Assembly: GCA_048882045.1 (NCBI GenBank)
Contig: JBHLRZ010000008.1
Location: 1-64,000 of the forward strand
DNA from: Candidatus Thorarchaeota archaeon
GTDB taxonomy: Archaea; Asgardarchaeota; Thorarchaeia; Thorarchaeales; Thorarchaeaceae
Length of the DNA stretch: 64,000 bases
Direction: 5' to 3'
This document shows, piece after piece, positions 34,872 through 50,712 of this stretch (positions are counted from its first letter, which is position 1; each line of letters starts with the position of its first letter). A program made the position numbers and the translations under genes. The notes under the pieces were generated by a model. That model saw only the letters and a list, made by a program, of their open reading frames with translations, was not told where the DNA came from and did no database searches.

Positions 34872-35848
34872 AGTTTGGTGAGTATCTGGAGAATATTGCC
34901 AAAATTATGCTCGACAGTCCTGCTTTTTTCTGCATACTCTCCAAGGATTAGGAAACGTTCGTCTGTTCCAGCCAATTCACGGTATTTGTCTGACCTTATC
35001 TTCGAGTGAATCTCATTGTTCAGTATCAAGATGTCGTCTGATGATCTCAGGATGTATTGGAGCATCTTGATCAACATGTCAAACTGTTGAATATCCCTGA
35101 GTTGAAGTGTTTGACTATAGAACTGGAATTCGAGCCTATCGAGTCGTTCCCGCATTCGAACGAGTTCTAGCATCCAGGGATCTACCTCTTCCCTTTCCAG
35201 TTCATCCCCGAACCTAGCCCAATAGTTCTGCTGCTCAAGGAGCTGCACCAAGTAGTTGCGTAGGAATTGAAAATGATCTATGCCTTCCTCAATATCATCC
35301 TCAGTACCAATGGGCTCCATCATCTGATCAGTCTGACTGTGTTTCACTGCAATCATGAGGGAGAATTTATCGACATATTTCTTCACTTCGTCAGTCTTTT
35401 CCTTCTCTGTCATGAGGTCAGTGAATGTGTCTCCCAGTGTGAGTATGAACTTATACAAGCACTCTGAACAGATTTCTGCACTACTTGTAATCTCCTTTGT
35501 AGAAAGGAATTGCATTGCATCCTCGAGGTCATTTCCCGGGACATCCTTTCCATGTATTCTTAGTACCCATCCTTGTGAGATACAGTAGACTTTGTTATTT
35601 GGATAGTTGATAAATATCGAAGCATAGCAGACATTTCCATCAGTAGCTCTTTCTTCTTGCATACTCTCCTTGTCAAAATGGAAAGAAAAGATAGAGGGGT
35701 CGATTTCTATCGCGTCAATCTCTAGCACACTGTCGTTATTGACACACAGTTTTTCATCACCGAAGACCTTGTAGCAGGGACAACCTCGTATCAACTTGAT
35801 TGATCCTTGTTGCTCCTCCTGGTTCTGAGCGCCGTACACGGTCTTCAT
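34868..35848 (-). CDS. Hypothetical Cys-motif protein, paralog B
   Basis: IRGCPCY, CVNND, CYASI, YCISQ, CSECLY; paralogous to 35908..36879. Confidence 0.8.
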   Translation of the reverse strand: MKTVYGAQNQEEQQGSIKLIRGCPCYKVFGDEKLCVNNDSVLEIDAIEIDPSIFSFHFDKESMQEERATDGNVCYASIFINYPNNKVYCISQGWVLRIHGKDVPGNDLEDAMQFLSTKEITSSAEICSECLYKFILTLGDTFTDLMTEKEKTDEVKKYVDKFSLMIAVKHSQTDQMMEPIGTEDDIEEGIDHFQFLRNYLVQLLEQQNYWARFGDELEREEVDPWMLELVRMRERLDRLEFQFYSQTLQLRDIQQFDMLIKMLQYILRSSDDILILNNEIHSKIRSDKYRELAGTDERFLILGEYAEKSRTVEHNFGNILQILTKL

Positions 35849-35907
35849 CTCATCTCAAGCCTACTTTCAGGACATTCCTGACTACTCAAGTACCCATTTA
35901 GCAGTTA

Positions 35908-36879
35908 TTATGAAGTATTTGAATCGATTTCGTGTAATACTGATACCAAGTTACTGAATCGATACTCAGTTTCCTTCCTTTTCTGAGTGTGTTGAGAAAG
36001 CATTTCCTGAATGTTTGCTGGAATTGCATCTCGATTCATCAGGTCATTTGTCCTTTCACGAATTTCATCGTTTGTCCTCATGACTCGCTCTGATACATTT
36101 ACCATAAAATGAAGGGCATCAAGCGGGTGAGTTTCTTCTCTTTCATCCTCCAATGCTTGTACTTGAAAAAGGAAGACAGATTCAAGCCTTGAAAGAGTAC
36201 TGTAAGACTCTATCAGGGCAATGAGGTCAGATTCAGCCTGAGACTTCTTCAGATTGCGAATCATCGAAATCCAATGTGACCGAGTTCTATTAAGATCATT
36301 CATGTAACTTGGCAAGTGTTTCTTGAAATCCTCAATCCCGTTAGTATCATCGTAACCACTGAGTTGCATAGCTATCGTGTTTGCAAGATTCCTCACGTAT
36401 GAATCGATGATTTCTCTCCTCTCATCATCTGTCAGAAGGCTTTCCGAGCTCTCGCCCATTGTTCTCAGGTATCTGTATAGACAGTCTGAGCACAATACTC
36501 CGTCTCTGTGTTTTTCTGAGGAGGTTACGAACTGAAGTGCACTATCAATCTCTGAGGCTTTGACATCATGGTTGTTGATACGAATCCTCTGACTTTGACT
36601 TACGCAATAACAGTATCCCTCTTCTCTGTCTAGGAATGTTATGAGGTAACACAGATTTTCATTTGAACTTCCAAACTCCTCTAGGTTGTCTTTTGATGTA
36701 AGGGAATCGAAGAAGCTTGGATCAACAGAGATAGCTCTAATCGGATTCACTGTGTCATTATTCAGACATACCTTCTCCAGGTTTGAAGAGTTTCCAAATT
36801 CCCGATAACAGGGACAGCCTCTTACAATTAGGGTCATACCATCAGTGTGGTCGATGAGATTGGCTGGGTTAATGTTCAC
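35908..36879 (-). CDS. Hypothetical Cys-motif protein, paralog A
   Basis: VRGCPCY, CLNND, CYLIT, YCVSQ, CSDCLY. Confidence 0.8.
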   Translation of the reverse strand: MNINPANLIDHTDGMTLIVRGCPCYREFGNSSNLEKVCLNNDTVNPIRAISVDPSFFDSLTSKDNLEEFGSSNENLCYLITFLDREEGYCYCVSQSQRIRINNHDVKASEIDSALQFVTSSEKHRDGVLCSDCLYRYLRTMGESSESLLTDDERREIIDSYVRNLANTIAMQLSGYDDTNGIEDFKKHLPSYMNDLNRTRSHWISMIRNLKKSQAESDLIALIESYSTLSRLESVFLFQVQALEDEREETHPLDALHFMVNVSERVMRTNDEIRERTNDLMNRDAIPANIQEMLSQHTQKRKETEYRFSNLVSVLHEIDSNTS

Positions 36880-37191: not shown

Positions 37192-37746
37192 AGTGGTATT
37201 CACCCAAGTATGCTTGGTGTCATACGTCAATATGATTGTAAGTAATACTCGGTCGATATTCGAATCTTTAACGAAGACATCAGCTAAACTATGGCATATA
37301 TCAGACGACGGAATTGCACCAATCCTGGGTCGTGCTGATTGTGGACAGATAGAGAGGCATTGACAATCTATTCAAAAAAAAAATCTTCATTGTTGAGAAA
37401 TAGTGGGTGAATCTCTGGACCTATCAAACCTTGGTCTATAGAAATGGGGAGCATGATAGCTCCCTTTTCATAAAAGAGAAAGACGTACAAACACCGGGAG
37501 GAAGATTGTACGCCACGACATAAGCATTGATGCTTCTCATAAGTCATCTTGTATATTGTAGCCAATACTGGGTCAGTACTCTGTGTATTATTGAGGACTT
37601 TTTGGCGTATCGTGAGGGTCAATACTGAGTATAGTTTCAAATTCAAACATTGATGAATCCTTCTTCGGCTACTGCCGACCTCTCGGAATACATTTATGCT
37701 AGCTGAATGTTACCGTGGCCGTTCAACATAATGTTGAGGTGTACAA

Positions 37747-38508
37747 ATGGCTTCAGATGCAGAGAGTAAAGCAGCTGGTAAAGCCGAGGATGAAGTGAAG
37801 GTTACCAAAGAGCTCGAATCCCTTAAATGGATTCGAGAGAGGCGCTCTATCCGAGAGTTTACTGGCGAGAAAATCCCCGATGAAGACATCGAGTTAATAT
37901 TAGAAGCGGCGCGACATGCCCCAAGTCCAGAGAACATGTTGATGATGCGTTTCATTGTCATACGTGATGACCAAGAAACAAAGGTATTTCTTGCTGATAT
38001 CGCGCAAGAAATGGCTCAGACAGCTTTTGGTGGAGCTCCTTTTGAACTTACAAGTGGTAGAAACTGGTTCATTAGTGACCCTTACAGAGCAGCTGTCTAT
38101 GCCCGACTCAGGGATGGCGAATTATTCAGATACCCCGAGAAAAGTGACACAGTCATCATTGTCTGCGCTAGTGACTCATGGCATGATGCAGGATATCTCT
38201 ATCCCAACTCACTATTCGGATCCGTTGTCTGTGGTATGGCTGTCCAAAATATGTGGCTAACTGCTACAGAACTCGGATATGGATGTGGATACGAGGCTCT
38301 TGTTGCTTCCGATCCACGCCATGCAGAACTGATTCGTGATAGACTTGGAATCCCGCCAATCTGGGAACCTCTAACAGCGTTCTGTATTGGACAGCGAGTG
38401 TCACCAAGAGCACTAGGTCCTAGCAGAGCTCCTCTAGAAGGGCTAATGTATGACGAACGATGGGGCAATCCATACAAAAGAATAGCATTCAGGAAGGAGG
38501 ACAAGTAA
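37747..38508 (+). CDS. Nitroreductase-family flavoprotein (copy 1)
   Basis: IRERRSIREF, ILEAARHAPSPEN, MAVQNMWLTATELGYG. Confidence 0.9.
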   Translation: MASDAESKAAGKAEDEVKVTKELESLKWIRERRSIREFTGEKIPDEDIELILEAARHAPSPENMLMMRFIVIRDDQETKVFLADIAQEMAQTAFGGAPFELTSGRNWFISDPYRAAVYARLRDGELFRYPEKSDTVIIVCASDSWHDAGYLYPNSLFGSVVCGMAVQNMWLTATELGYGCGYEALVASDPRHAELIRDRLGIPPIWEPLTAFCIGQRVSPRALGPSRAPLEGLMYDERWGNPYKRIAFRKEDK

Positions 38509-38509
38509 G

Positions 38510-39037
38510 ATGGACGTTAATTTCGAAGGCGAAACTTTCGAGAACATGAAGAAGTTGGCTGAGGAGGCTGGTCTTACTCCTGAAGGGCTCATTGAAGTGG
38601 TCATGGAACAATTCTGTGACAACAAGGGTGCAAGAGTCTATACAGGCAGATGGACTGGTGGAGAAGTAGACGGTGAGAAAGGATTCCGTTATGTGCCTCA
38701 ATGGCCTTTCCGACCAGGATTCAAGGAGGCCACTGGCGACAAGGTGAAGAAATGGAAGTCTGGAGGAAAATCCTATAGGCCTCATCCAACAGGCGCATGG
38801 CCATTCTATCCACGGCTTAAGGAAGGCGATATTCAGCACGAATATTGGAACACCAAAAAGATGATTCACCAAGCTTTCATCAATGATAGAAAAGGCCGAG
38901 TTGTTGTCTTGATGGAAGGCGACAAGTATGACGCCTTCTTGGACAAAGTGAAACAGAGAAAGGGCAACTTCTGGGCAACCTCTGTGGATGCTGCAATGCA
39001 TGAAGCTGTGGATGAATGGATGGCAAAGGAGGAATAA
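38510..39037 (+). CDS. Hypothetical protein with RHH-like termini and a repeated WPFxP motif
   Basis: Tightly coupled to the nitroreductase (AGGAGG SD, 1-nt gap); WPFRP and WPFYP. Confidence 0.75.
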   Translation: MDVNFEGETFENMKKLAEEAGLTPEGLIEVVMEQFCDNKGARVYTGRWTGGEVDGEKGFRYVPQWPFRPGFKEATGDKVKKWKSGGKSYRPHPTGAWPFYPRLKEGDIQHEYWNTKKMIHQAFINDRKGRVVVLMEGDKYDAFLDKVKQRKGNFWATSVDAAMHEAVDEWMAKEE

Positions 39038-39040
39038 AAG

Positions 39041-39400
39041 ATGTCACAACTACAAGAATTCTTCAAATTCCTGATGACACAGTGCAATACCAAGGATGAC
39101 CTAAAGAAGCAGCTCGCTGAGTGGGTGGGTCCTTACCATGGCAAGATCCTTCAGGTTCACACCGAGGAAGGTGACAGTTACATGGTTGTTACAAAGGATA
39201 AGATCGAGATATTCGATGGAGTCTATCCAAGTCCTGATGTTATATACAAAGCCAACTCAGAAACATTACTTGGTATCTTTACTGGGGAAATTCCATTCAG
39301 AGATACGATGAAGGATGGAAGTCTTGAAGTGATCGGAAATGCTCACGAGAGTGATCCTCTTGCCAACCTAATTCTTGCGGTCATGATGGGAGCAATGTAG
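39041..39400 (+). CDS. SCP2 sterol/lipid-binding domain protein
   Basis: G..PSPDVIYKANSETLLGIFTGEIPF..TMKDGSLEVIGN matches the SCP2 C-terminal pattern. Confidence 0.8.
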   Translation: MSQLQEFFKFLMTQCNTKDDLKKQLAEWVGPYHGKILQVHTEEGDSYMVVTKDKIEIFDGVYPSPDVIYKANSETLLGIFTGEIPFRDTMKDGSLEVIGNAHESDPLANLILAVMMGAM

Positions 39401-39411
39401 GAGGTCTAGCA

Positions 39412-40533
39412 ATGGTGAAAAAGATCGCAGTCATAGGCGCTGGGCTCATGGGCGCAGGTATTGCCTATGTATCAGCATGGAATGGCTTTGAAGTCGCGCT
39501 CGTGGATATCAAACAAGAGTTCGTTGATGCAGGTATGGAACGTATTCGTACCGATGTCATGACTGGTATTGATAAGGGAAAGATCTCCATGAGCGAAGCT
39601 GAAGGCCTTATGGGTAGGTTGAGTCCTACTACTAACACCGAGGAGGCCGTCAAGGATGCTGACTTGGTTATTGAGGCTATCTTCGAGAACATGGATGTAA
39701 AGAAAGAGGTCTTTGCCAAGATTGATGCTGCTGCACCACCATCCACGATTCTGGCAACAAACACATCATCACTAAGTATTGATGAACTGGCAGGAGCTAC
39801 AAAACGTCCTGACAAATTCATTGGTATGCACTATTTCTCACCTGTTCCAGCCATGAAGCTTCTAGAGCTAGTAATTGGAGATAAAACAGGTGATGAAACT
39901 ATTGCAGTTGCTGAAGAAGTTGGGAAGAAACAAGGTAAGACGACAGTGATAGCCAAGAACAGCCCAGGCTTCATTGTTAATCGAATCCTCAATCCAGCAA
40001 TGCTCGAGGCGATTCGGATGTTAGAACGTGGCGAAGCAACGAAGGAGGAGATTGATAATGCAATGGTGAGTGTAGGTCGGGCTCCAGCAGGTCCCTTCAC
40101 GTTGGGTGATTTTGTTGGGCTTGATATTGCATTCAATGCTTTGTCGACACTCTACAGAGAGCTTGGAGACTGCTTCACGCCTCCTGATACCCTGAAGAAC
40201 CTTGTCGAAGCAAAACACTTGGGTATGAAGACCAAGAGAGGCTTTTACTCATATGGAGGAGAGGAAATTCCACCAGAGCCTCCGAAAGGTGCCGATCCTC
40301 AGTGGATTGTGGAACGGATCAATATACCCGCCATACGAGAGGCAATGATTCTTGTTGATGATGGCATCGCTTCTGTAGAAGACATCAATATGGCCATGAA
40401 ACTTGGTGCAAGCTGGCCCATGGGTCCATTCGAAATGCTTGAGAATTATGGTGTTGACAAGGTCCGTGATTTCATCAAGAAACTCAATGATGAACTAGGG
40501 GACTGCTATTCTGTACCAAAATATCTAGGTTAG
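39412..40533 (+). CDS. 3-hydroxyacyl-CoA dehydrogenase (copy 1)
   Basis: VIGAGLMG, VIEAIFE, TNTSSL, GMHYFSP, PGFIVNR; duplicated C-terminal domain. Confidence 0.93.
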   Translation: MVKKIAVIGAGLMGAGIAYVSAWNGFEVALVDIKQEFVDAGMERIRTDVMTGIDKGKISMSEAEGLMGRLSPTTNTEEAVKDADLVIEAIFENMDVKKEVFAKIDAAAPPSTILATNTSSLSIDELAGATKRPDKFIGMHYFSPVPAMKLLELVIGDKTGDETIAVAEEVGKKQGKTTVIAKNSPGFIVNRILNPAMLEAIRMLERGEATKEEIDNAMVSVGRAPAGPFTLGDFVGLDIAFNALSTLYRELGDCFTPPDTLKNLVEAKHLGMKTKRGFYSYGGEEIPPEPPKGADPQWIVERINIPAIREAMILVDDGIASVEDINMAMKLGASWPMGPFEMLENYGVDKVRDFIKKLNDELGDCYSVPKYLG

Positions 40534-40541
40534 AACATGCT

Positions 40542-40572
40542 GGCAGGGTTCAATCCCTGCCTCCTCATTTTT
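40542..40572 (+). terminator. Hairpin plus T tract ending operon 37747-40533
   Basis: GGCAGGG-TTCAAT-CCCTGCC followed by TCCTCATTTTT. Confidence 0.6.
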
Positions 40573-40667
40573 GAAAGAATATTGGTTAAAATCAGTAACC
40601 ATTCCCCCATGATAAATGAGGTTTATAAGTCGGTCACTCTCTCCGAAATCCGTATAATCTCCGAAAG

Positions 40668-41489
40668 GTGGAAAAAATGCCAGAGTATGAAACATTACTT
40701 TACTCAAAGGAAGGTTCGTTTCTTTCTCCTGCAAAGAACGTAGCTGTAATCAAGATGAATCGCGTTGATGCCATGAATGCCTTCAACGCAACTATCCTCA
40801 ACGAGCTTGTTGAAGCTCTGAAAGAGGCTGAAAACGATCCAGAGGTAAGGTCAATCGTAATCGCATCAACACACGATAAGGTGTTTGGTGTTGGTGCAGA
40901 CCTTAAGGAGGCGCAGGCACTCCTGAGTTCACCTGATGAAGTTCAACCTCTCTTGAAACAAGGTATCGAAGCTATTGATACTGTTGCAAAGCTCTCCAAG
41001 CCAGTAATAGCAGCCGTTAATGGACTTTGTCTTGGCGGTGGTTTCGAACTTGCTCTCGCCTCTGATATCCGAATCTGTGATACTGAGGCAAAGCTTGGAG
41101 CAGTAGAGGTTGGAATTGGATTAATTCCATCATGGGGAGGATGCTGTAGACTCCCCAGAATTGTTGGACTTGGAAAGGCAATGGAGATGACTCTAACTGG
41201 CGGACAGATCACAGCGCAAGAGGCTCTGGAGATGGGACTTGTGAGCAAAGTCGTTGGCAAGGATGAGTTATTGAGCCAAGCTATGTGGTACGGAGCGAAA
41301 TTTGGTGGAAATGCACCAGTAGCTTTGAAGCTAGCAAAACAAGCGACGCATATGGCTTTCGAGAGTGACTATAAACACAATTTCGAGTTTCAAGTCGACG
41401 CTGGTGTTCAATGTTTCCACACAAAGGATCTTGCTGAAGGAATCGCCTCGGTCTTTGAGAAAAGACGCGGAAAATTCACGGGAGAGTAA
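40668..41489 (+). CDS. Enoyl-CoA hydratase/isomerase (crotonase)
   Basis: FGVGADL, KPVIAAVNGLCLGGGFELALASDIR, E..IGLIP. Confidence 0.92.
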   Translation: MEKMPEYETLLYSKEGSFLSPAKNVAVIKMNRVDAMNAFNATILNELVEALKEAENDPEVRSIVIASTHDKVFGVGADLKEAQALLSSPDEVQPLLKQGIEAIDTVAKLSKPVIAAVNGLCLGGGFELALASDIRICDTEAKLGAVEVGIGLIPSWGGCCRLPRIVGLGKAMEMTLTGGQITAQEALEMGLVSKVVGKDELLSQAMWYGAKFGGNAPVALKLAKQATHMAFESDYKHNFEFQVDAGVQCFHTKDLAEGIASVFEKRRGKFTGE

Positions 41490-41497
41490 CTTTTCTT

Positions 41498-41532
41498 GGT
41501 CCTCCCAATTGGGAGGATCTTCTCTTTCTTTC
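41498..41532 (+). terminator. Palindromic hairpin between convergent genes
   Basis: TCCTCCCAATTGGGAGGA flanked by T/C-rich tracts. Confidence 0.6.
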
Positions 41533-41542
41533 ATAGAAATTT

Positions 41543-42013
41543 CTACCAGATTATTCTCCCCATGTCTCTGGCCCGCAATGACTTTGTAAGTTCTCCCAAG
41601 TGATACATACAATGCCGCATAACATAGATGTACTTGTGCAGAATGGACTTGAATCCCCGCCGCGCAAAACCATCGGTTCCTAGCACCTCTTGGTCACTTA
41701 GCCCCTTCAATATCTTCAGTGTCTGCTTCTTAACTCGTTTAACATAATCTTCGAAGAATTCTCGATCTTTCTTCAAGAGTGCCTCTGTTTCTTTTCTCCT
41801 AGAATTCGCGGATACATCGTTTATTGGTGTCCATTCACTTTCCGAATTACTATTGTAGAATTCAATTGCCTCAACAATGTGAAATAGAATGTATGCATAC
41901 ACCCAGTCCTTTTCATCTTCTCTCCAGAAATCGCCATCCATCCTCGAAACAGCTTGGTTAATCATCTTAAAGGTGGAATTCATCTCGAAAACCAGGGTTT
42001 GAACAATTGACAT
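41543..42013 (-). CDS. DinB/YfiT-like four-helix protein
   Basis: ILFHIVEAIEFY and HCMYHLGEL His motifs. Confidence 0.8.
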   Translation of the reverse strand: MSIVQTLVFEMNSTFKMINQAVSRMDGDFWREDEKDWVYAYILFHIVEAIEFYNSNSESEWTPINDVSANSRRKETEALLKKDREFFEDYVKRVKKQTLKILKGLSDQEVLGTDGFARRGFKSILHKYIYVMRHCMYHLGELTKSLRARDMGRIIW

Positions 42014-42212
42014 ATCCTGCTCTCAATAGGTATGTGTCATTAATGTTGCTCCCCCTTTAATCTATATAATCGCCTCCGGAGTACCATCCTTCTTTTTGAG
42101 GGTTAATCGTCAACCTTAAGACCCCGTAGTCGATGGGAAGTTACATACTGTATACAATTGAGCCAATCTCTGGAAACACAAGACTGGCTCTTCCCACGGA
42201 GGACAAGAAAAG

Positions 42213-43379
42213 TTGGCAAGAAAAGTTGCTGTCGTCGCTGGAGGCCACAGCAAATTTGGAAAACGATACGATGCCACGATGAGAGAGCTAAGTGCTGAGG
42301 CCTACAAACCGATCTATGACGAAGGACTCACACAGGATAAGATAGACGCCAGTGTTCTCTCATATGCTGCATCGCAATTCTCTGGACAAGGCGCAGGATC
42401 TGCGTTGATAGCAGACTATCTCGGGTTACAAGACAAACCTCACCTGAGAGTGGAATCTGCATGTACTACTGGAACTGCCAGCCTCAGAGCAGCTTGGGGT
42501 ATGGTGGCCTCAGGCCTCTACGATGTAATGTTGGTGTTGGGTGTTGAACAGATGAATCGTGTATCATCTGCCACTGCAACAGAGTATATGTCACAGGCAG
42601 GTGATATGCGTTGGGAATATCCATTTGGTATCAGTTTCCCTGCATTCTATGCATTGATGGCTTCACGCTACATGAGCGAATATAACATGGAGCATGATAC
42701 ATTGGCTAAGATATCTGTGAAGTCCCACCATTATGGATCACTAAATCCAAAGGCTCATCTTCCGAAAGAAGTGTCTTTCGAAGAAGCGAACAATGCTGTT
42801 CCAATTTGCAGACCGTTGAATCTCTATGATTGTAGTCTTATAACGGATGGTGCTGCCGCTGTCGTCATTGCTGCAGAGGATTGTGTGAAGGAGTTTACTG
42901 ACAGGCCCATGTGGATTAAAGGAATCGGTGCTGGTGCATCAGAAATGATGATTCAGGACCGACCAAGTCTCACCTCGATTCCAGGAGCTAAACGTGCTGC
43001 TAAGGCAGCCTACAAAATGGCTGGAGTTGAACCTAAGGACATCGATATGGCTCAGGTTCATGACTGTTTCTCTATCGCAGAACTCATCGCTTATGAGGAC
43101 TGTGGCTTTGCTGAACCTGGAAAAGGTCCAGAGATGGTTGAGAACAAAGAAATGTATCACGATGGTAGAATTCCTGTGAACTGTGATGGTGGTCTGAAAA
43201 GCAAGGGCCATCCACTAGGCGCCACAGGCGTTTCTATGACCTATGAAATCTTTAAGCAGATGCGTGGAGAGGCTGATTTGCCATCACGACAGATTGACGA
43301 TGTCAAACTTGGACTGGCACACAATGTAGGACAGTCGGGTCAATTTGTCAATGTGTTCATCTTTGAGAGGGGTTGGTAA
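42213..43379 (+). CDS. Thiolase (archaeal SCPx-type acetyl-CoA acetyltransferase)
   Basis: VESACTTG, HDCF, GGLKSKGHPLGATG, AHNVG. Confidence 0.93.
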   Translation: MARKVAVVAGGHSKFGKRYDATMRELSAEAYKPIYDEGLTQDKIDASVLSYAASQFSGQGAGSALIADYLGLQDKPHLRVESACTTGTASLRAAWGMVASGLYDVMLVLGVEQMNRVSSATATEYMSQAGDMRWEYPFGISFPAFYALMASRYMSEYNMEHDTLAKISVKSHHYGSLNPKAHLPKEVSFEEANNAVPICRPLNLYDCSLITDGAAAVVIAAEDCVKEFTDRPMWIKGIGAGASEMMIQDRPSLTSIPGAKRAAKAAYKMAGVEPKDIDMAQVHDCFSIAELIAYEDCGFAEPGKGPEMVENKEMYHDGRIPVNCDGGLKSKGHPLGATGVSMTYEIFKQMRGEADLPSRQIDDVKLGLAHNVGQSGQFVNVFIFERGW

Positions 43380-43382
43380 GAA

Positions 43383-43796
43383 ATGGCTGAACAGAAAGAA
43401 GTCTACCTTGGTTACTCAACAGACAAGGCTGTGACACCATTCCTCCAGAAATTCCTTGAGGCTCTCGATGAAGGAAAACTCATGAAGAGCAAGTGCCCAA
43501 AGTGTGGGGCGGAATATCTACCACCGAGACAGCATTGTCAGAAAGACATGACTGAGTGTGAGCTGATAGAGGAAACTGAACGTGAAGCAAAGCTTTATTC
43601 TTATGTCATTGTGGACTTTGCTCCAGCAAGTCTGTCTTCAAAACAGCCCTATATAGTGGCCATCGGAGAGTTTCCATCAGGGCTTAGATTGACTGCCCAT
43701 ATCACCAACCCGATGGGTCCACCCACCGTCGGCATGCCTCTCAAACTAGCATTTGAAACACAAGACAAGATGACCACCTACAAGTGGCTCGTATAA
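43383..43796 (+). CDS. DUF35 Zn-ribbon/OB-fold thiolase partner
   Basis: KCPKCG..YLPPRQHC, LYSY, PY.VAI; directly downstream of the thiolase. Confidence 0.9.
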   Translation: MAEQKEVYLGYSTDKAVTPFLQKFLEALDEGKLMKSKCPKCGAEYLPPRQHCQKDMTECELIEETEREAKLYSYVIVDFAPASLSSKQPYIVAIGEFPSGLRLTAHITNPMGPPTVGMPLKLAFETQDKMTTYKWLV

Positions 43797-43803
43797 ATAG
43801 GTT

Positions 43804-43831
43804 GAGCCTTCGGGCTCTCCCTCTCATTTTT
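43804..43831 (+). terminator. cUUCGg hairpin plus T tract
   Basis: GAGCC-TTCG-GGCTC followed by TCCCTCTCATTTTT. Confidence 0.65.
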
Positions 43832-43836
43832 CTAGG

Positions 43837-44073
43837 TTAATTTCTCCTTGTTTTAGCTCTGAACGAGATACAACCATTCGGACACTCATCAATGCAATTT
43901 CCACAATCCTTACAATACTGAATGTGCGCAACCTGAGGTTTCTCGTCTAGCTTCTCATAGACACCATACCTACACGTCTTTAGACATGTCCCACACCCAT
44001 CACAACAGGTTTCATCAATTATTGTAGGAATATGTGTCCACCTTTGGCTTTTTACCGGTGATTCATTATCCAT
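43837..44073 (-). CDS. 2x[4Fe-4S] ferredoxin
   Basis: CDGCGTCLKTC and CKDCGNCIDECP. Confidence 0.9.
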   Translation of the reverse strand: MDNESPVKSQRWTHIPTIIDETCCDGCGTCLKTCRYGVYEKLDEKPQVAHIQYCKDCGNCIDECPNGCISFRAKTRRN

Positions 44074-44099
44074 CTTTTGAATGATGCTCTATGTACAAA

Positions 44100-44453
44100 T
44101 TAGTGACTATATTTTGAGAGTGACTCAAGAACTTTGGACCACCTGGTCTGTCTTGATACTTCCTTCAAGGTACTGAAATAGACCAGTAATGCATCATCCG
44201 AATTACAACAATCAATCTTGATCAGAGCATCTTCGATCAAATCTTTAACATCTTCAAACCTACGTCTGCCCTCGTTACGCCGGTAGTCTGAGAAGATGAC
44301 ATAATCTCGTTTTGTGCTCCTCAGTGCGGCGATGAGCTTCGACTCTTCTTGAACTAGAGTTCTGAAATCATAAGTCTTCTGAAGGTTCTCTTTCATAGCA
44401 CTAAGATTCTGTTTCCAGGTTGCCTTTCTATCACCTGAATCCACGTAGTTCAA
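44100..44453 (-). CDS. Hypothetical protein
   Basis: ORF with a probable TTG start at 44453 after GGAG. Confidence 0.65.
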   Translation of the reverse strand: MNYVDSGDRKATWKQNLSAMKENLQKTYDFRTLVQEESKLIAALRSTKRDYVIFSDYRRNEGRRRFEDVKDLIEDALIKIDCCNSDDALLVYFSTLKEVSRQTRWSKVLESLSKYSH

Positions 44454-44626
44454 TCTCCGGTTGAGGGGGTAGTAATGACTAGAGTAAACTCGCAATTAAA
44501 TATTAAGTGAAATCCAAGGATTCGGCGCGTTTTCCTCTGGGTCTTAAATGGTTTCAATCCCCAAAATGACTTCCTAATGCTTATTACGTAGCTTGAACCC
44601 TCCGCATTCAATGAGGAGGAAGAACT

Positions 44627-45412
44627 GTGTCTGAACAGGAAGTTCTCTATGAAGTAGCTGATGGAGTCGCAACCATCACAATAAATCGACCTGCGAAATA
44701 CAATGCCTTGAACGGTGCTGTAAGAGAATATCTCACTGATTTCTTGAAGAAAGCGGAAGAGGATGATTCCGTCAGAGTTGTTGTCCTGACAGGGGCTGGT
44801 GAGAAGGCCTTCGCAGCTGGGGCTGACATCTCTCAATTTCCAGGAGTTAACTCCAAAGAAGTACGGCCAGCAGCCAAACAAGGACAGGATATCAGTGTCT
44901 ATATTGAGTCAATGAACAAACCAGTAATCGCTTCTGTAAACGGCATTGCTCTGGGAGGAGGCTGTGAGCTAGCAATGTCCTGCGACATTAGGTATGCATC
45001 CGCAAATGCAAGATTCGGACAACCTGAGATTCTCTTGGGAATCATTCCGGGTTATGGAGGTACTGTCAGACTCCCGCGACTTGTAGGTCTTGGAAATGCA
45101 AAAGAGCTCGTATACACGGGAGACCAGATCAAGGCTGACGAAGCATTACGGATGGGTCTAGTCAACAAAGTGTTTGATTCTGTCGAAGAACTCCATAAAG
45201 GTGTCAAGGAACTCACAGATAAGCTCGTTGAGAGACCTGGTGTCGCAATTAAATTAGCAAAACAATCGCTGAACAGCTCGTGGCAAATGTCTCTTCGTGA
45301 TAGTCTCGCACTCGAGCTGGATGTGTTTTGTCAAACATTCGATACAGAAGACAAGGAAGAGGGTGTGGCAGCTTTTCTTGAGAAGCGAAAAGCTGAGTTC
45401 AAACACAAGTAA
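44627..45412 (+). CDS. Enoyl-CoA hydratase
   Basis: AFAAGADI, NGIALGGGCELAMSCDIR, GQPEILLG. Confidence 0.93.
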   Translation: MSEQEVLYEVADGVATITINRPAKYNALNGAVREYLTDFLKKAEEDDSVRVVVLTGAGEKAFAAGADISQFPGVNSKEVRPAAKQGQDISVYIESMNKPVIASVNGIALGGGCELAMSCDIRYASANARFGQPEILLGIIPGYGGTVRLPRLVGLGNAKELVYTGDQIKADEALRMGLVNKVFDSVEELHKGVKELTDKLVERPGVAIKLAKQSLNSSWQMSLRDSLALELDVFCQTFDTEDKEEGVAAFLEKRKAEFKHK

Positions 45413-45499
45413 TCATGTGGACTCAATTAAATGAGTTTGTATATATAGCACCCCACCAATAGTGGAATTGAGGTTTCGGGTGCGTTTATCCTGCGAGGA

Positions 45500-46270
45500 G
45501 TGAAAATGACAACGAATGCTAAGGAAAAATCAGATGCAAGCAGTGAGAAGATTCAGGACACCAAAGTTGCAGCTGGTCTAGATGTTCTAAAACATGTCAG
45601 GTCCCGACGATCAATACGTGAATTCACAGGTGGAAAGATTCCGGATGATCATATAGAGTTGATTTTGGAAGCAGCACGACATGCTCCAAGTCCTGAGAAC
45701 ATGCTCATGATTCGTTTGATTGTGATTCGAGATGATCAGGGGACAAAGGAGTTTCTCGCTGACATAGCGCAGGAAAACGCCCGAACGGTGTTCGGAAATT
45801 CACCTTTCGAGCTTACAAGCGGGAGGAACTGGTACATTAGTGATGAGTATCGAGCTGGTGTGTTCTCCCGCCTTAGAGAAGGAGAACTGTTCAGATATCC
45901 CGAGAAGAGTGACACAGTGATTGTTGTCTGCGCTAGCAACGCATGGCATGACGCAACAAAGTTGTATCCCAATGAGCTCTTTGGTTCAGTTGTCGCAGGT
46001 ATGGCTATTCAAAATATGTGGATGGTGGCAACTGCGATGGGGTACGGTTGCGGCTATGAGGCTTTAGTCTGTTCAGACGCTCGACATACTGAGATGATAC
46101 GTGAAAGAATAGGGATTCCACCCATTTGGACTCCTCTGACAGCTTTCTGTGTTGGGATCCCGGTATCAAAAAGACATCTTGGACCCAGCCGTCCACCACT
46201 TGAAGGGCTCCTATATGATGAACGATGGGGTAAGCCTTACACACGAATTGCTTTCAGAGAAAAGGATTGA
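45500..46270 (+). CDS. Nitroreductase-family flavoprotein (copy 2)
   Basis: Close paralog of 37747..38508 with shared ILEAARHAPSPENML, PFELTSGRNW and ELFRYPEKSDTVI. Confidence 0.9.
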   Translation: MKMTTNAKEKSDASSEKIQDTKVAAGLDVLKHVRSRRSIREFTGGKIPDDHIELILEAARHAPSPENMLMIRLIVIRDDQGTKEFLADIAQENARTVFGNSPFELTSGRNWYISDEYRAGVFSRLREGELFRYPEKSDTVIVVCASNAWHDATKLYPNELFGSVVAGMAIQNMWMVATAMGYGCGYEALVCSDARHTEMIRERIGIPPIWTPLTAFCVGIPVSKRHLGPSRPPLEGLLYDERWGKPYTRIAFREKD

Positions 46271-47403
46271 GAAAAATGGAAGTCAGAAAAATAGCAGTAA
46301 TTGGTGCTGGTCTTATGGGTACAGGAATCTCATATGTGTCAAGGGCATCTGGATATGAGGTGATTATGACTGATTTGGATGATGACGCAATACAACGAGG
46401 TCTGTCAAGGTTCCTGGGCTATGTGGAATCAGGAATCAAACGGGGAAAGTTATCTCCCGAAGATGGTGAGAAGTTAGTCAGTAAGCTAACCACTACAACA
46501 AACTTGAGCGAGGCAGTCAGTGATGTGGACCTAGTCATAGAGGCAGTCTTCGAAGATATGGATGTCAAGAAGAAGCTGTTCAAAGAAATGGACAGTGTTG
46601 CAAAGCCCCACACAATCCTCGCTTCCAACACATCCTCCTTGAGCATAACCGAGCTTGGTAAAGTGACAAACCGACCGAACAAGGTAGTTGGGATGCACTA
46701 TTTCTCCCCTGTTCCTGCAATGAAGCTTCTAGAGGTCATAGTGGGTAAAGAAACGAATGAGGACACAATTCAAACTGCTTTGGAGGTTGGCGAGAAGCAG
46801 AGAAAGATTACAGTGAAGGCAATCGATAGCCCAGGTTTTATTGTCAACAGACTCCGTGCGCAGATTGGGAGGGCAATATACCAAATCTATGAACAAGGCT
46901 TAGCAAGTGCTGAAGAGATTGACACAGCAATGAAAGAGAAGTTCGGTGTACCGATGGGATCATTGGAACTTGCTGACTTTGTAGGCTTGGATGTATCACT
47001 TGGTACAGGGAGTACTCTTGAGAGAGAATTGGGAGAATGCTACAAGGTTCCTGAAATACTCAAGAAATATGTGAAAGAAGGAAGACTCGGAAGAAAGACT
47101 AGCAAGGGTTTCTATGCATATGAGGATGGACAGAAACGGTCACTTGACGAACCAAAGGGTGCTGATCCGGATTGGTTGGTCACAAGAGTCATCATGCCCT
47201 ACCTTAGGGAAGCCATGATTGAGCTAGAGACTGGAATTGCATCAAAAGAGGACATTGACAAAGCCATGAAATTGGGTTCTAATTACCGAGAAGGGCCCTT
47301 TGAAACCATTGAGCGACTCGGGCTTGATTTGGTGCGTGAAGAGTTGCTGAAACTCCAAAAAGAATTTGGAGATTGTTATAGTCTTCCAAAGATGCTTCAG
47401 TGA
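46267..47403 (+). CDS. 3-hydroxyacyl-CoA dehydrogenase (copy 2)
   Basis: VIGAGLMG, SNTSSL, GMHYFSPVPAMKLLE, PGFIVNR. Confidence 0.93.
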   Translation: MRKMEVRKIAVIGAGLMGTGISYVSRASGYEVIMTDLDDDAIQRGLSRFLGYVESGIKRGKLSPEDGEKLVSKLTTTTNLSEAVSDVDLVIEAVFEDMDVKKKLFKEMDSVAKPHTILASNTSSLSITELGKVTNRPNKVVGMHYFSPVPAMKLLEVIVGKETNEDTIQTALEVGEKQRKITVKAIDSPGFIVNRLRAQIGRAIYQIYEQGLASAEEIDTAMKEKFGVPMGSLELADFVGLDVSLGTGSTLERELGECYKVPEILKKYVKEGRLGRKTSKGFYAYEDGQKRSLDEPKGADPDWLVTRVIMPYLREAMIELETGIASKEDIDKAMKLGSNYREGPFETIERLGLDLVREELLKLQKEFGDCYSLPKMLQ

Positions 47404-47422
47404 TATAGGGGTGAATAGATTC

Positions 47423-48208
47423 ATGGCAGAGGATTTGGTTATTTATGATGTAGAAGATGCGATTGCGACAATCACGATTAACCGCGTGGAGAAATACAAT
47501 GCCTTCAATCTCGCAGTGAAGGAGTCACTACTCACAATGTTCAAACGAGCAGAGGAGGATCCGTCAGTCCGAGTCGTTGTTGTTACTGGTGCAGGTGAGA
47601 AGGCATTCATCTCTGGAAGTGACATCACAGATTTCGTGGGACGGGATTCGGAGAGCATCAAAGATGTTGTTTGTCCCAGTCGTGATATTGCTGAATACAT
47701 GACATCAATGACTAAGCCAATAATTGCATCCATCAACGGCTATGCACTTGGTGGAGGCTGTGAGCTGGCTTTGGCATGTGACATTCGGTATTCATCATCC
47801 AATGCACAACTAGGTCTTCCAGAGATTAATCTTGGAACAATTCCTGGAAATGGAGGAACTGCAAGACTACCCAGACTTGTTGGTGTAGGAATCGCGAAAG
47901 AACTCATCATGACAGGAGGTCGGATAAGCGCTCAGGAAGCCCATCGAATCGGACTCGTAAACAGAGTCTTTGATTCTCAGGCTGAACTAAGGGAGGGTGT
48001 GATGGAACTCGCAAAGAAACTCTCCGAAATGCCAGGAGTTGCTCTAGGTCTGGCAAAACAGTCAATTCAGAAAGCCTGGGACCTCTCACTCGATGAACAT
48101 CTTGCTTTTGAGCTCGTTGCATTTTGTCAGACCTTTGACACTGAAGACAAAGAAGAAGGTGTAGCAGCTTTCCTCGAGAAACGTAAACCCCACTTCAAAC
48201 ATAGGTAA
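47423..48208 (+). CDS. Enoyl-CoA hydratase
   Basis: AFISGSDI, NGYALGGGCELALACDIR, GLPEINLG; paralog of 44627..45412. Confidence 0.93.
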   Translation: MAEDLVIYDVEDAIATITINRVEKYNAFNLAVKESLLTMFKRAEEDPSVRVVVVTGAGEKAFISGSDITDFVGRDSESIKDVVCPSRDIAEYMTSMTKPIIASINGYALGGGCELALACDIRYSSSNAQLGLPEINLGTIPGNGGTARLPRLVGVGIAKELIMTGGRISAQEAHRIGLVNRVFDSQAELREGVMELAKKLSEMPGVALGLAKQSIQKAWDLSLDEHLAFELVAFCQTFDTEDKEEGVAAFLEKRKPHFKHR

Positions 48209-48212
48209 TGAA

Positions 48213-49148
48213 TTAGGACTTTAGAACCTGAAGGTGTCCATCCTCAAGAAGAACGCGATCGCTCTTTGACAGATGTTCAATGTGCTTATCTAGCATGATT
48301 TCTTCGAAAAGAAGGTAGACCGGATTGGAAATTTTAGGATAGACTATGGGAATTTGAGCTAACTGTTTCACTGTATCTGCTCCTTCCTCAATATGATGTA
48401 GAATTTCTTCGTCACGTTGGTCGAAGTACGCTAAGTAGTTCCTGAGCTGCTCATCAAGCTTCTCTGTTACTGGATCCAAAAGGTGACTGCTAATCCCCAT
48501 TCTGGGCTGCAAATCTATTATTCTCTCAATAGACTTCTTGAAATCTTCTAAATCACTAACGACATTTCCATACCATGGGCCGAAATCTGTGAGGTCTATA
48601 TCCACAAGGAATATCTTCTCAAATCCATTGATGCCAAAACAAGTATGGTCATGAGTATGACCTGGTGAATGGATAGGTATGAGTCGCACCTCACCACAAT
48701 CTATTGGCTTATCGTCACGGAATGTGCCATCAACTATGTAGTCCTCTTTTACATGTGGTAGTTTTGAATTTAGCAAGGTCAGCCATTGATCCTTTGTTTC
48801 GGGATTAACTATTCCAATGGTTTTCATCATGGTCTGAAAGCTTTCAACTGCATCCTTAGCCAATGGGTGACATAATACTTCACAATCGGATACCCGTCGA
48901 AAGTACATTGTGTAACCTTTGTGATCAGCATGATAATGTGAAAGCACGATACGATCGAGGTCTTTGGGTTGGTGGCCTAAGTCTTTGAGAGTTGAAATGA
49001 CCTGCTCTGGATGAGAGCCAGCATCAACAAGAGTGAGAATCTCATCATCAATCAACAGTGTATTTGCTTCTGGAAAACGACCTTCATATTTCCCTCTAAC
49101 AAGATGAACATGTGGTTCAATCTCAATATGAGCAGGATGGTCTAACAT
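48213..49148 (-). CDS. MBL-fold metallo-hydrolase
   Basis: LVDAG, SHYHADH, PGHTHDH, SSH. Confidence 0.88.
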   Translation of the reverse strand: MLDHPAHIEIEPHVHLVRGKYEGRFPEANTLLIDDEILTLVDAGSHPEQVISTLKDLGHQPKDLDRIVLSHYHADHKGYTMYFRRVSDCEVLCHPLAKDAVESFQTMMKTIGIVNPETKDQWLTLLNSKLPHVKEDYIVDGTFRDDKPIDCGEVRLIPIHSPGHTHDHTCFGINGFEKIFLVDIDLTDFGPWYGNVVSDLEDFKKSIERIIDLQPRMGISSHLLDPVTEKLDEQLRNYLAYFDQRDEEILHHIEEGADTVKQLAQIPIVYPKISNPVYLLFEEIMLDKHIEHLSKSDRVLLEDGHLQVLKS

Positions 49149-49225
49149 TACAATTCGAATGTTTATCAAACAAATAACTGTCATGGTAGGACAATCTATA
49201 TGACGCCCTGTACATATGCACAGTA

Positions 49226-50695
49226 TTGGTGACAGATATGAGTGACCGTCTGTTCGCAATTTTTGATATTGGCACTACTGGAACACGATCCGTCATTGTC
49301 GACGAAGAGGGACGTGAATTAAGCAAAGCGTATGAAGAATATCCATCTAAGCCCTCTAATCTCAAAACTCATGAACAGCCAGCAGACACATTTTGGAGAA
49401 CTTCTGCAAATACAATGCAACGGGCGCTTTCAGGGTGTACACATGGCGCTGAAGCCATTGTTGGAGTCGTTGTCACAACTACGCGTGATTCTATCACTCC
49501 GATTGATAAGGAAGGTAAACCGCTCGCGCCAACTGTCACTTGGGTAGACAACCGGTCCACAGAGAAGAGTAAGGAGCTAGCGGAACATATCGGCCCTAGA
49601 AACAGTCTCAAAAAGATGATGTGGTTTCTTGAAAACAAACCTGATCTTTTCAAAAAGACACACAAATGGGTACTATTGGATGCTTACATCAATAACAAGC
49701 TGTGTGATGTCTTGGTTAGTTCACCCGCTGATGCTAGATTTGGTCCATTCGATCATGAAAAACTTCAATGGTCCGATGAACTGTGTGAACTCACAGAAAT
49801 TCCAATGGATAAGCTTACTGAGATCGTTGATTCAGGAACTACAATTGGAGATGTAAGCGAATTCGCCGCCAAAGCAACAGGTCTAAGGAAAGGGACTCCT
49901 GTCATAATGGGAAGTGGGGACCAACAGTGTTCAGCCCTTGGAATGGGTGTATTTGAAACAGGACGTGTTAAAGCAACTACAGGAACTGGAACATTTGTCA
50001 TTACACATCTTGAAGAGTATATGGAGGATCCATATGTCATGTTCTGTAATCCCTCCGCTATCCCCGGTAAATGGATTCTTGAAGGAGTTACTCCTGGGAC
50101 CGGTCTGACGTACAAATGGTATAGAGACCAGTATTGCGAACCAGAAATGGCACTTGCCGCTCAAACTCAGAAGGATGTATATCAAATCATAGAATCTTCA
50201 GCAGCCACGGTTCCAGCTGGGAGTGACGGATTGGTCATCTTTCCATTCATGGCATATAATCTAGGAATATTCTATCATCTTGGGTTTGGTCATACCAAAG
50301 CCCATGTAGCCAGAGCCATCATGGAAGCCAATGGCTACAGTATCCACATGTATCTCGAGATGATGGAAGGCATGCTCGATGTTGAATTCACAGAGCTTCG
50401 AATTGATGGTGGTGGTGCTACCTCACCTCTCTGGCGTCAGATCCAGGCTGACTGCACAAACAAGACCGTTCTACTCCCTAAGGTGAGAGACTCCACAGTC
50501 ATTGGTGCTGCGATGCTGGGTACTGTTGGAAGTGGTATCTATGGTGACCATTCGGAAGCATTTGAGAACATGTTTCATGTAGAAGAACGACGTGAACCAA
50601 TTCCTGAAAACGTTGAGGTGTATGAGAAACTATATCCAGTCTTCAACAAGATGGTGATTGCAGAAATGGGTAACATTCTGGACTCTATATCATAG
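49226..50695 (+). CDS. FGGY-family carbohydrate kinase (glycerol kinase-like)
   Basis: DIGTTGTR, WVDNR, GDQQCSALG, TGTG, DGGGA. Confidence 0.88.
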   Translation: MVTDMSDRLFAIFDIGTTGTRSVIVDEEGRELSKAYEEYPSKPSNLKTHEQPADTFWRTSANTMQRALSGCTHGAEAIVGVVVTTTRDSITPIDKEGKPLAPTVTWVDNRSTEKSKELAEHIGPRNSLKKMMWFLENKPDLFKKTHKWVLLDAYINNKLCDVLVSSPADARFGPFDHEKLQWSDELCELTEIPMDKLTEIVDSGTTIGDVSEFAAKATGLRKGTPVIMGSGDQQCSALGMGVFETGRVKATTGTGTFVITHLEEYMEDPYVMFCNPSAIPGKWILEGVTPGTGLTYKWYRDQYCEPEMALAAQTQKDVYQIIESSAATVPAGSDGLVIFPFMAYNLGIFYHLGFGHTKAHVARAIMEANGYSIHMYLEMMEGMLDVEFTELRIDGGGATSPLWRQIQADCTNKTVLLPKVRDSTVIGAAMLGTVGSGIYGDHSEAFENMFHVEERREPIPENVEVYEKLYPVFNKMVIAEMGNILDSIS

Positions 50696-50712
50696 ATATG
50701 GACACGATGTGA

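Follow-up and report, generated by a model that had tools for sequence, protein, structure and literature searches.

The window analyzed here, bases 1-64000 of contig C8 from the Thorarchaeota metagenome-assembled genome (MAG) G000 (3.6 Mb, 93% complete), carries a cluster of beta-oxidation-type genes that opens with a nitroreductase-fold protein, NTR1. We found that the conserved unit at this locus is a four-part cassette, in which the nitroreductase-fold protein (NTR) is accompanied by two small proteins, A and B, and by an SCP2-like protein. In strictly anaerobic archaea, this cassette adds an accessory part to the beta-oxidation-type metabolism of acyl-CoA, where it stands alongside acyl-CoA dehydrogenase (ACAD) and does not replace it. 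Judged by its sequences, it is a nitroreductase-superfamily flavoprotein with dedicated small partners and a putative role as an enzyme. By analogy with characterized systems, we tentatively propose that it may be a multi-subunit FMN oxidoreductase acting on long-chain acyl- or enoyl-CoA. A full-text literature search on nitroreductases together with 3-hydroxyacyl-CoA dehydrogenase (HADH), SCP2, or ACAD in archaea returned nothing relevant, and we found no paper describing the cassette.

Gene identities in the window were assigned by Pfam and NCBIfam matching (Table 1). The first-pass annotation, made from the letters of the sequence, had listed three enoyl-CoA hydratases (ECHs), two HADHs, a thiolase with its DUF35 partner, an SCP2 protein, and a ferredoxin, and Pfam matches and translation confirmed this inventory; the ECH, HADH, and thiolase activities of classical beta-oxidation all lie within the cluster. 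Its remark that the cluster contains neither ACAD nor electron-transfer flavoprotein (ETF) was also borne out: ACAD domains (PF00441, PF02770, PF02771) were absent from the cluster and from all of contig C8, as were ETF matches. The same nitroreductase paralog does occur in both HADH operons, as had been noticed, with NTR1 and NTR2 being 72% identical across 254 residues and each gene lying directly upstream of one HADH gene. Absent from that annotation was the 175-aa open reading frame (ORF) unk175, in which A and B are fused, and this turned out to be the most tightly linked partner of NTR. The genes are closely packed, with gaps of 1 nt between NTR1 and unk175, 3 nt between unk175 and the SCP2-like gene, and 11 nt between the SCP2-like gene and HADH1.

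We then compared the neighborhoods of increasingly distant NTR homologs. The primary linkage of NTR is not to HADH; it is to the A and B ORFs (~85-100 aa each), followed by the SCP2-like ORF (~120 aa). The cassette was found in at least 8 Asgard families, in named Helarchaeota and Hodarchaeales MAGs, in Bathyarchaeia, in a "Halobacteria" MAG, and on a Dehalococcoidia-type contig. An SCP2-like gene follows A/B in nearly every sampled lineage; in Hodarchaeales, SCP2 is instead fused to an ACAD, and the order there is ACAD::SCP2 fusion, NTR, A::B. Across lineages the gene order is permuted (A-B-SCP2-NTR or NTR-A-B-SCP2), and stops and starts are close or overlapping along the cassette. Additional relatives with a PF02036 SCP2 match were found at loci L149, L155, and L156.

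The surroundings of the cassette are almost uniformly those of CoA-thioester metabolism. In ~70 Thorarchaeota loci, NTR-A/B-SCP2-HADH-ECH-thiolase-DUF35 is followed by two small minus-strand ORFs, another ECH, and a convergent metallo-beta-lactamase-fold hydrolase, and the full string NTR-A-B-SCP2-HADH-ECH-thiolase-DUF35 is kept in Bathyarchaeia (L016) and in Asgard family f18 (L134). Families f7, f8, f13, f15, and f19 keep NTR-A-B-SCP2 with varying neighbors. An ACAD lies 2-3 kb from the cassette in family f12 (directly adjacent in L145), an ACAD and two thiolases lie near it in family f13, and it adjoins an ACAD in the Dehalococcoidia. Overall, the neighbors are nearly always HADH, ECH, thiolase/DUF35, ACAD, family-III CoA-transferases, acyl-CoA synthetases, MaoC, or HGD-D enzymes. 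The second NTR-HADH-ECH set (NTR2) is confined to a subset of Thorarchaeota genomes and to L021-type loci. NTR thus stands beside HADH, ECH, or other acyl-CoA genes in Thorarchaeota, other Asgard families, Bathyarchaeia, the "Halobacteria" MAG, and the Dehalococcoidia-type contig, which upholds the proposed linkage of NTR to acyl-CoA genes. This linkage is not due to chance, as the same genes follow the same NTR clade in ~70 Thorarchaeota loci and in other phyla.

We next searched the NTR clade profile against 1.84 billion representative proteins. Only 30 clusters matched at E ≤ 1e-30, so the NTR family is narrow. Among the top clade matches, many are proteins of 450-490 aa in which two NTR domains are fused in tandem (NTR-NTR); they derive from Helarchaeota, Hodarchaeota, a "Halobacteria archaeon" MAG, and Dehalococcoidia. 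Such fusions mimic the usual nitroreductase dimer, which has its active site at the interface, and they suggest a dimer-like unit. We inspected seven tandem loci and used HMMs of the window family to confirm the partner genes (E 1e-12 to 1e-37): B and SCP2 homologs adjoin the fusion in 6 of the 7, and the A profile also matches in 5 of those, the ORF in the A position of L152 being matched by the B profile alone. The order is A-B-SCP2-NTR-NTR or NTR-NTR-A-B-SCP2, and genes nearby encode family-I/III CoA-transferases, AMP-/ADP-forming acyl-CoA synthetases, thiolase/DUF35, short-chain dehydrogenases/reductases (SDRs), a 2-hydroxyacyl-CoA dehydratase subunit, and ACAD. A Helarchaeota MAG (GCA_013375455.1; L155, 4421-14533) has three NTR-family genes of the clade within 19 kb; a single-domain NTR and one tandem NTR each have A, B, and an SCP2-like gene, the third (tandem) stands alone, and all three are interleaved with family-III CoA-transferases, an NMO/FabK-type gene, and an ADP-forming acyl-CoA synthetase.

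Other fusions join the remaining parts of the cassette. Alignment shows A and B as a single fused protein in Hodarchaeales and in the Thorarchaeota group of the window, and as separate ORFs in most other lineages. NTR is fused to A in P0179 (337 aa; A-like part at residues 265-332, E 1.9e-12) and in P0342 (360 aa; six contigs from two sources). The A::B and NTR::A fusions, as sequence features, support a physical association of the cassette parts. The single most informative locus is L157, where P0342 is encoded. On its plus strand the genes run ACAD, BKACE, an LplA-like gene, two thiolase-like genes, DUF35, ACAD, NTR::A, B, SCP2-like, MaoC, and acyl-CoA synthetase, and after one AMP-binding gene on the opposite strand, HADH and ECH follow on the plus strand. 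The stop of the second ACAD overlaps the start of NTR, an arrangement of translational coupling. A beta-oxidation locus that has ACADs of its own thus retains the cassette, which makes the cassette an additional component and not an ACAD substitute.

The first-pass annotation had suggested that NTR might perform a missing ACAD or enoyl-CoA reductase step. That the step is missing did not hold: a genome search identified six ACADs in G000 (on contigs C1, C2, C7, C10, C13, and C56), one ETF-family gene, 12 MDR-type dehydrogenases above the family cutoff, and FadH-like OYE enzymes. The one match to the ETF family (PF01012) is found where contig C12 ends (86489-87277). ETF-alpha was not found in the G000 assembly and is encoded in 7 of 7 same-genus genomes and in 22 of 26 genomes of the family; given its presence in these relatives, its absence from G000 reflects an assembly break, and genome-wide absence calls for this MAG need care. 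Based on these matches, both ACAD and ETF appear available to the organism. We also considered whether the cassette replaces ETF and rejected this, as ETF-alpha is encoded by the relatives.

We then surveyed 151 evenly drawn Asgard genomes, calling the NTR clade at E ≤ 1e-30. The clade was present in 60 of the 151 and was distributed by family: 25/26 in the window's own family, 17/19 in f12, 6/6 in f19, 5/5 in f7, 0/25 in f9, and 0/13 in f5. ACAD was present in 131 genomes. All 60 NTR-positive genomes had ACADs (2-16 matches each), 71 genomes had ACAD without NTR, and none of the 20 ACAD-negative genomes had NTR. This nesting is only mildly informative, given that the genomes are related to one another and that ACAD is present in 87% of them; it does exclude ACAD substitution at the genome level. 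The earlier interpretation therefore survives in part: the linkage is conserved and specific, while the absent ACAD step is contradicted by ACADs elsewhere in the genome and by the cassettes that adjoin ACADs in other lineages.

We examined the flavoprotein by structure prediction. The AlphaFold2 model of the NTR1 monomer (pLDDT 70) matched 4dn2, IYD, the FbiB C-terminal domain, and BluB (Foldseek E 1e-10 to 1e-11, probability 1.0), and as far as the model can tell NTR1 is a genuine nitroreductase fold. Residues R32, R33, S34, and R36 of the FMN-phosphate motif RRSIR are invariant in 13 diverse clade members. Approximately nine further Arg/Lys residues are invariant across the clade, and such residues are compatible with a polyanionic ligand such as CoA or NAD(P)H. 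The conserved C-terminal tail (LGPSR...ERWGNPY.R.AF) has low confidence in the monomer model, as expected of a segment that packs on a partner. Two sequence scores were below threshold, 51 bits against the FbiB model (cutoff 249.55) and 18.8 bits against the Acg-type NF047509 (cutoff 199). A complex prediction with two NTR chains, FMN, and unk175 gave run scores of 0.00, 0.61, and 0.00, which speak neither for nor against a complex.

The small proteins have ends that resemble ribbon-helix-helix (RHH) domains. The unk175 profile (alignment A2) matched CopG (E 6.7e-5) and ORF56 (E 0.003) at its N-terminal motif, and a single-sequence search of the PDB gave a marginal CopG match only. In an exhaustive structural comparison, residues 1-43 and 126-175 matched almost only RHH domains (NikR, Arc, RelB, DinJ, TacA, PutA) at modest Z-scores of 4.4-4.9 and rmsd ~2 Å. 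Each half has a WPFxPxxKE-type motif, and these motifs lie between the RHH motifs, so that A reads RHH-WPF and B reads WPF-RHH. The strand of half A is acidic (D/E-V-N-F-E-G-E), and half B has a conserved basic RKGR arm ahead of its strand. The model of unk175 (pLDDT 84, pTM 0.47) is extended, with RHH-like ends and a beta-hairpin. Foldseek with this model returned nothing at E ≤ 0.001, its hits being extended spliceosomal proteins, and an ESM Atlas feature search scored at most 0.87 and provides a lead only. A model that is confident and extended and lacks a globular match is what would be expected of a subunit that wraps around a partner.

Taken together, the reading that we tentatively favor is that an NTR dimer, clasped by the extended A/B proteins, would form the catalytic core of a multi-subunit oxidoreductase. 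At this core, hydride would pass between NAD(P)H on one side and, on the other, the C=C bond (alpha,beta or conjugated dienoyl) of a long-chain acyl-CoA, with the SCP2 subunit holding or delivering the acyl-CoA ester to the flavoprotein. NTR2 would be a second copy of the catalytic subunit that arose by lineage-specific duplication and belongs to another operon, ECH-HADH-ECH; lying between ECH and HADH without a regulator-like partner, it sits as a pathway enzyme would. The reductive direction is thermodynamically easy in strict anaerobes, and with ECH, HADH, and thiolase/DUF35, it could close a reverse-beta-oxidation or enoyl-CoA dismutation cycle. Alternatively, the cassette might be an auxiliary reductase for unsaturated chains that acts after ACAD. 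The sequences and models themselves show the gene content, the conserved four-gene unit and its fusions, its company of ACADs, the nitroreductase fold, and the RHH-like ends of A and B. That the parts form a complex, that the substrates are CoA esters, that the chemistry is at C=C bonds, and in which direction it runs, we infer by analogy and context. A role as an enoyl-CoA reductase is conceivable. A more specific version, in which the cassette would be an enoyl-CoA reductase/acyl-CoA dehydrogenase with an FMN dimer, two RHH-derived clamps, an SCP2 feed, and direct coupling of NAD(P)H to the C=C step of long-chain acyl-CoA without ETF, is a doubtful one, at perhaps one chance in a few. Were it true, Asgard archaea, Bathyarchaeia, and other sediment anaerobes would have a reversible beta-oxidation or fatty-acid-forming cycle of thiolase/DUF35, HADH, ECH, and the cassette in one operon.

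Several findings weigh against an oxidoreductase of acyl-CoA esters. The solved structures nearest to NTR1 by sequence are Geobacter proteins of unknown function. With the ACADs, ETF, 12 MDR dehydrogenases, and FadH-like OYE of the genome, there is no demonstrably missing step for the cassette to fill, and the cassette and OYE/FadH-type genes did not show complementary distribution. The tandem NTR-NTR of L154 has neither partner genes nor nearby CoA genes. Finally, A and B resemble RHH domains, whose usual role is DNA binding.

Separately, in Asgard family f13 (G012:C1:1136594-1139816), a 650-aa FadH-like OYE reductase is encoded ~1.5 kb from the cassette NTR gene, which suggests that the two belong to one pathway and are not alternatives.

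The closest known systems include the C-terminal domain of FbiB, a dehydro-F420-0 reductase in which FMNH2 reduces an activated C=C bond. It shares the nitroreductase fold and is among the best sequence and fold matches of NTR1; NTR1 nonetheless scores far under the family cutoff, has no F420 context, and has other partners. The cyclodipeptide oxidase AlbA/AlbB combines a nitroreductase-fold subunit (CDOA, PF00881) with a small unrelated partner whose gene overlaps with that of the first; it binds FMN where the two subunits meet and performs alpha,beta C-C dehydrogenation beside a carbonyl using O2; the nearest nitroreductase relatives of AlbA are of the BluB, IYD, and FbiB types (PMC11055893). 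The cassette resembles this system in combining a nitroreductase-fold flavoprotein with a small non-enzymatic partner from an adjacent, often overlapping gene, and the best fold matches of NTR1 (IYD, BluB, and FbiB-C) are the very types nearest to AlbA. It differs in that the partners here are two RHH-like proteins and SCP2, not the four-helix CDOB (PF19585); unk175 matched no Pfam family, CDOB included, and its model is not a four-helix bundle. Furthermore, the context here is acyl-CoA metabolism in anaerobes, while AlbA/AlbB is found in cyclodipeptide synthase clusters and uses O2.

TyzC is a nitroreductase-superfamily desaturase in lipid biosynthesis (PMC10404671), and TyzC/OxzB, of the flavin-dependent oxidase subgroup, are similar to the cassette in superfamily, in desaturating lipid-linked substrates, and in having genes beside lipid-metabolic genes (PMC10404671). 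Those enzymes, in contrast, have N-acyl amino acids as substrates and ThiF cyclases as partners; they require O2 and come mainly from actinobacteria. The premise of the first-pass annotation that nitroreductase-fold enzymes can perform C=C chemistry is well founded in AlbAB (PMC11055893) and TyzC (PMC10404671). For archaeal acyl-CoA metabolism, Sulfolobus acidocaldarius uses ACAD and ETF for beta-oxidation, whereas its synthesis route relies on a complex of KT/DUF35, an SDR ketoacyl-CoA reductase, and a MaoC dehydratase, together with an MDR enoyl-CoA reductase that depends on NADPH, and KT/DUF35 pairs are abundant in Asgard genomes; the words "nitroreductase" and "SCP2" do not occur in the text of that paper, nor is an RHH-like component described there (bioRxiv 10.1101/2024.07.05.601840). 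The window cluster likewise has a thiolase/DUF35 pair beside acyl-CoA-processing enzymes, and it differs in having (S)-type HADH and crotonase ECH, with no SDR, MaoC, or MDR reductase in the cluster.

The alternative that survives best, though we regard it as unlikely, is a sensor-regulator, in which an RHH heterodimer of A and B would bind the operon promoter under control of the NTR flavin redox state and/or of acyl-CoA bound by SCP2. PutA, where RHH is joined to a flavoenzyme, and RHH antitoxins that hold a partner by an extended tail would be parallels; both are among the fold matches, and both combine an RHH motif with a flavoenzyme or with an extended partner-binding tail, although sequence homology does not go past the RHH motif and the half A strand is acidic here. 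The CopG profile match at the N-terminus of unk175, the RHH fold matches at both of its ends, the basic RKGR arm of half B, and the position of the cassette at the 5' end of the operon all agree with a regulator. So does the upstream region, where a perfect palindrome lies between the start codon and a TATA-like box, GGAATACATTTATGC, that is conserved in an alignment of 60 Thorarchaeota upstream regions and is a putative promoter element. The pattern TCAACA-N(0-4)-TGTTGA recurs at the same position within the Thorarchaeota group of the window. Of 130 upstream regions, 34% contained a palindrome with a stem of 6 bp or more, compared to 16% of shuffles, roughly a twofold excess in a set where many loci are close relatives.

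Further features of the same proteins and sites count against regulation of this kind. The palindromes differ or are absent among Thorarchaeota sublineages, while the A/B RHH strands are nearly invariant, and palindrome type did not co-vary with RHH strand residues in Thorarchaeota. The acidic strand of half A is unusual for DNA contact. Strict synteny of a regulator with an enzyme over archaeal phyla and a bacterium, with permuted order and NTR::A fusions, would be rare, and NTR2 sits in an operon without A/B, between ECH and HADH. We also tried the palindrome as the mark of a regulon and rejected it, having found 2 matches in the genome compared to ~1.9 expected; the motif has no regulon in the genome. 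The missing regulon, the variable palindromes, the acidic strand, the synteny, the NTR::A fusions, and the lone NTR2 together favor A and B as protein partners of the flavoprotein. A dual role of A/B, like that of PutA or the antitoxins, is conceivable.

We consider it rather improbable that the flavoprotein is a redox relay, that is, a diaphorase or flavin reductase that recycles NAD(P)H made by HADH or shuttles electrons from ACAD/ferredoxin to another acceptor. Most characterized nitroreductases are NAD(P)H:acceptor oxidoreductases, NTR2 is coupled to HADH2, and ferredoxin genes lie near the window cassette and beside an ACAD-nitroreductase pair on contig C1. Other nitroreductase paralogs of G000 are ACAD-adjacent as well; those on C13 and C1, however, belong to other subfamilies than NTR1 and lack A/B. 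A relay would leave the strictly co-conserved SCP2 and A/B partners unexplained, and nitroreductase flavins disfavor the one-electron steps that exchange with ACAD or ferredoxin requires.

Less probable still is a substrate other than a CoA ester, such as an isoprenoid, a quinone-like compound, or an ether-lipid chain, which SCP2 would present as UbiJ/UbiT present polyprenyls to flavoenzymes; closeness to beta-oxidation genes would then reflect shared lipid turnover. SCP2 proteins accept many different lipids, an FGGY kinase-GlpA operon adjoins the cluster, and L156 and L154 have no immediately adjacent CoA genes, yet the recurrent neighbors are overwhelmingly CoA-specific (CoA-transferases, acyl-CoA synthetases, ACAD, HADH, and ECH). 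Least credible, and in our estimate very improbable, is strict ACAD replacement, with the NTR clade as the cluster's acyl-CoA dehydrogenase in an ETF-independent, non-canonical beta-oxidation: the operon of Thorarchaeota, f18, and Bathyarchaeia does hold three of the four beta-oxidation activities and the cassette with no ACAD within the stretches examined, and nitroreductase-fold enzymes are capable of alpha,beta-dehydrogenation (PMC11055893, PMC10404671), but the known nitroreductase-fold desaturases use O2 as acceptor, which these anaerobes lack, the ACAD and ETF genes of G000 and its relatives and the 60 of 60 NTR-positive genomes with ACAD speak against it, the cassette adjoins ACADs in f12, f13, Hodarchaeales, and Dehalococcoidia, and in L157 it is coupled to an ACAD in a string with thiolases and with HADH and ECH close downstream.

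The function of the cassette matters beyond this locus. Asgard archaea are the closest known relatives of eukaryotes, and the question of whether they synthesize fatty acids or degrade them is relevant to the "lipid divide" and to the origin of eukaryotic membranes. The cassette is among the most tightly conserved unknowns in Asgard acyl-CoA clusters, and it is also found in Bathyarchaeia, Helarchaeota, and Dehalococcoidia, groups that abound in anoxic sediments. Should the cassette prove to be a flavin-dependent C=C oxidoreductase of long-chain CoA esters, it would represent a fifth structural class of enoyl-CoA reductase/dehydrogenase, and enzyme subunit would be a new role for RHH-derived proteins; should it prove to be a regulator that senses flavin or lipid, archaea would have a new system for the control of fatty-acid metabolism. 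The cassette proteins are small and soluble, so the question is directly testable.

Table 1. Features of the cassette, its upstream region, and the surrounding acyl-CoA cluster in the window
Feature	Position	Strand	Evidence and remarks
Promoter-like element GGAATACATTTATGC, TATA-like box upstream of NTR1	37685-37699	+	Conserved in the alignment of Thorarchaeota upstream regions; occurs once in window
Perfect 7-1-7 palindrome TCAACAT-A-ATGTTGA, between TATA-like box and start codon	37723-37737		Pattern recurs in the window's Thorarchaeota group
NTR1, nitroreductase-fold protein, 253 aa; opens cassette	37747-38508	+	PF00881, E 5e-25, 89 bits (cutoff 23.5)
unk175, fused small proteins A and B, 175 aa	38510-39037	+	No Pfam/NCBIfam family; RHH-like motif and WPFxPxxKE in each
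SCP2-like protein, predicted to bind lipid/acyl-CoA, 119 aa	39041-39400	+	PF02036, E 6.9e-5, 23.6 bits (cutoff 21.3)
HADH1, 3-hydroxyacyl-CoA dehydrogenase with additional C-terminal 3HCDH domain	39412-40533	+	PF02737, E 2.6e-64; PF00725
ECH1, crotonase-type enoyl-CoA hydratase	40668-41489	+	PF00378, E 5.7e-64
156-aa ORF, no family	41543-42013	-	Seen in closest relatives only (L054, L065)
SCP-x-type thiolase	42213-43379	+	PF22691, PF00108; NF004720, 453 bits, above cutoff
DUF35, ChsH2-type zinc ribbon and OB fold, thiolase partner	43383-43796	+	PF01796, PF12172
Ferredoxin, 78 aa, 2x[4Fe-4S], two Cys-x2-Cys-x2-Cys-x3-Cys motifs	43837-44073	-	Translation; kept in some Thorarchaeota loci
131-aa ORF, no family	44100-44495	-	Position after DUF35 kept in most Thorarchaeota loci; sometimes duplicated
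ECH2, crotonase-type enoyl-CoA hydratase or isomerase	44627-45412	+	PF00378, E 2.6e-72
NTR2, second flavoprotein copy, without own A/B/SCP2	45500-46270	+	PF00881, E 3e-21, 76.6 bits (cutoff 23.5)
HADH2	46267-47403	+	PF02737, E 1.8e-60; start abuts NTR2 stop
ECH3	47366-48208	+	PF00378, E 1.5e-66
Metallo-beta-lactamase-fold hydrolase, convergent to cluster	48213-49259	-	PF00753; recurs in many Thorarchaeota loci

We also recorded the two loci elsewhere in G000 where a nitroreductase lies beside an ACAD. On contig C13 (50347-55107; L146:6347-11107), two paralogous membrane proteins, an ACAD, a 248-aa nitroreductase that is 31% identical to NTR1, a 182-aa ORF, and an HMGL-like protein of the homocitrate/isopropylmalate-synthase type are encoded together, with a thiolase/DUF35 pair divergent from this operon and no A/B or SCP2 at the locus. 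On the minus strand of contig C1 (217101-219995; L147:6101-8995), a ferredoxin (112 aa), an ACAD (419 aa), a nitroreductase (180 aa), and a membrane protein (137 aa) are encoded. We found no homology of unk175 to the small ORFs beside these two ACAD-nitroreductase pairs.

Within the window, two tandem ORFs of ~325 aa each without a Pfam family precede the cluster on the minus strand (34868-36879), and an MDR-type dehydrogenase (~1580-1945) lies 36 kb from it. The metallo-beta-lactamase-fold hydrolase that converges on the cluster has counterparts directly after SCP2 in Asgard family f15 (L143:4626-5585 and L144:3843-4769; 23-24% identity) and may be a further pathway component, for example a thioesterase. 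Directly beyond the cluster (49226-52380), an operon opens with genes for a kinase of the FGGY family and for a GlpA-like FAD dehydrogenase that includes a BFD [2Fe-2S] domain; the location of this operon beside the acyl-CoA genes may point to a lipid pathway common to both.

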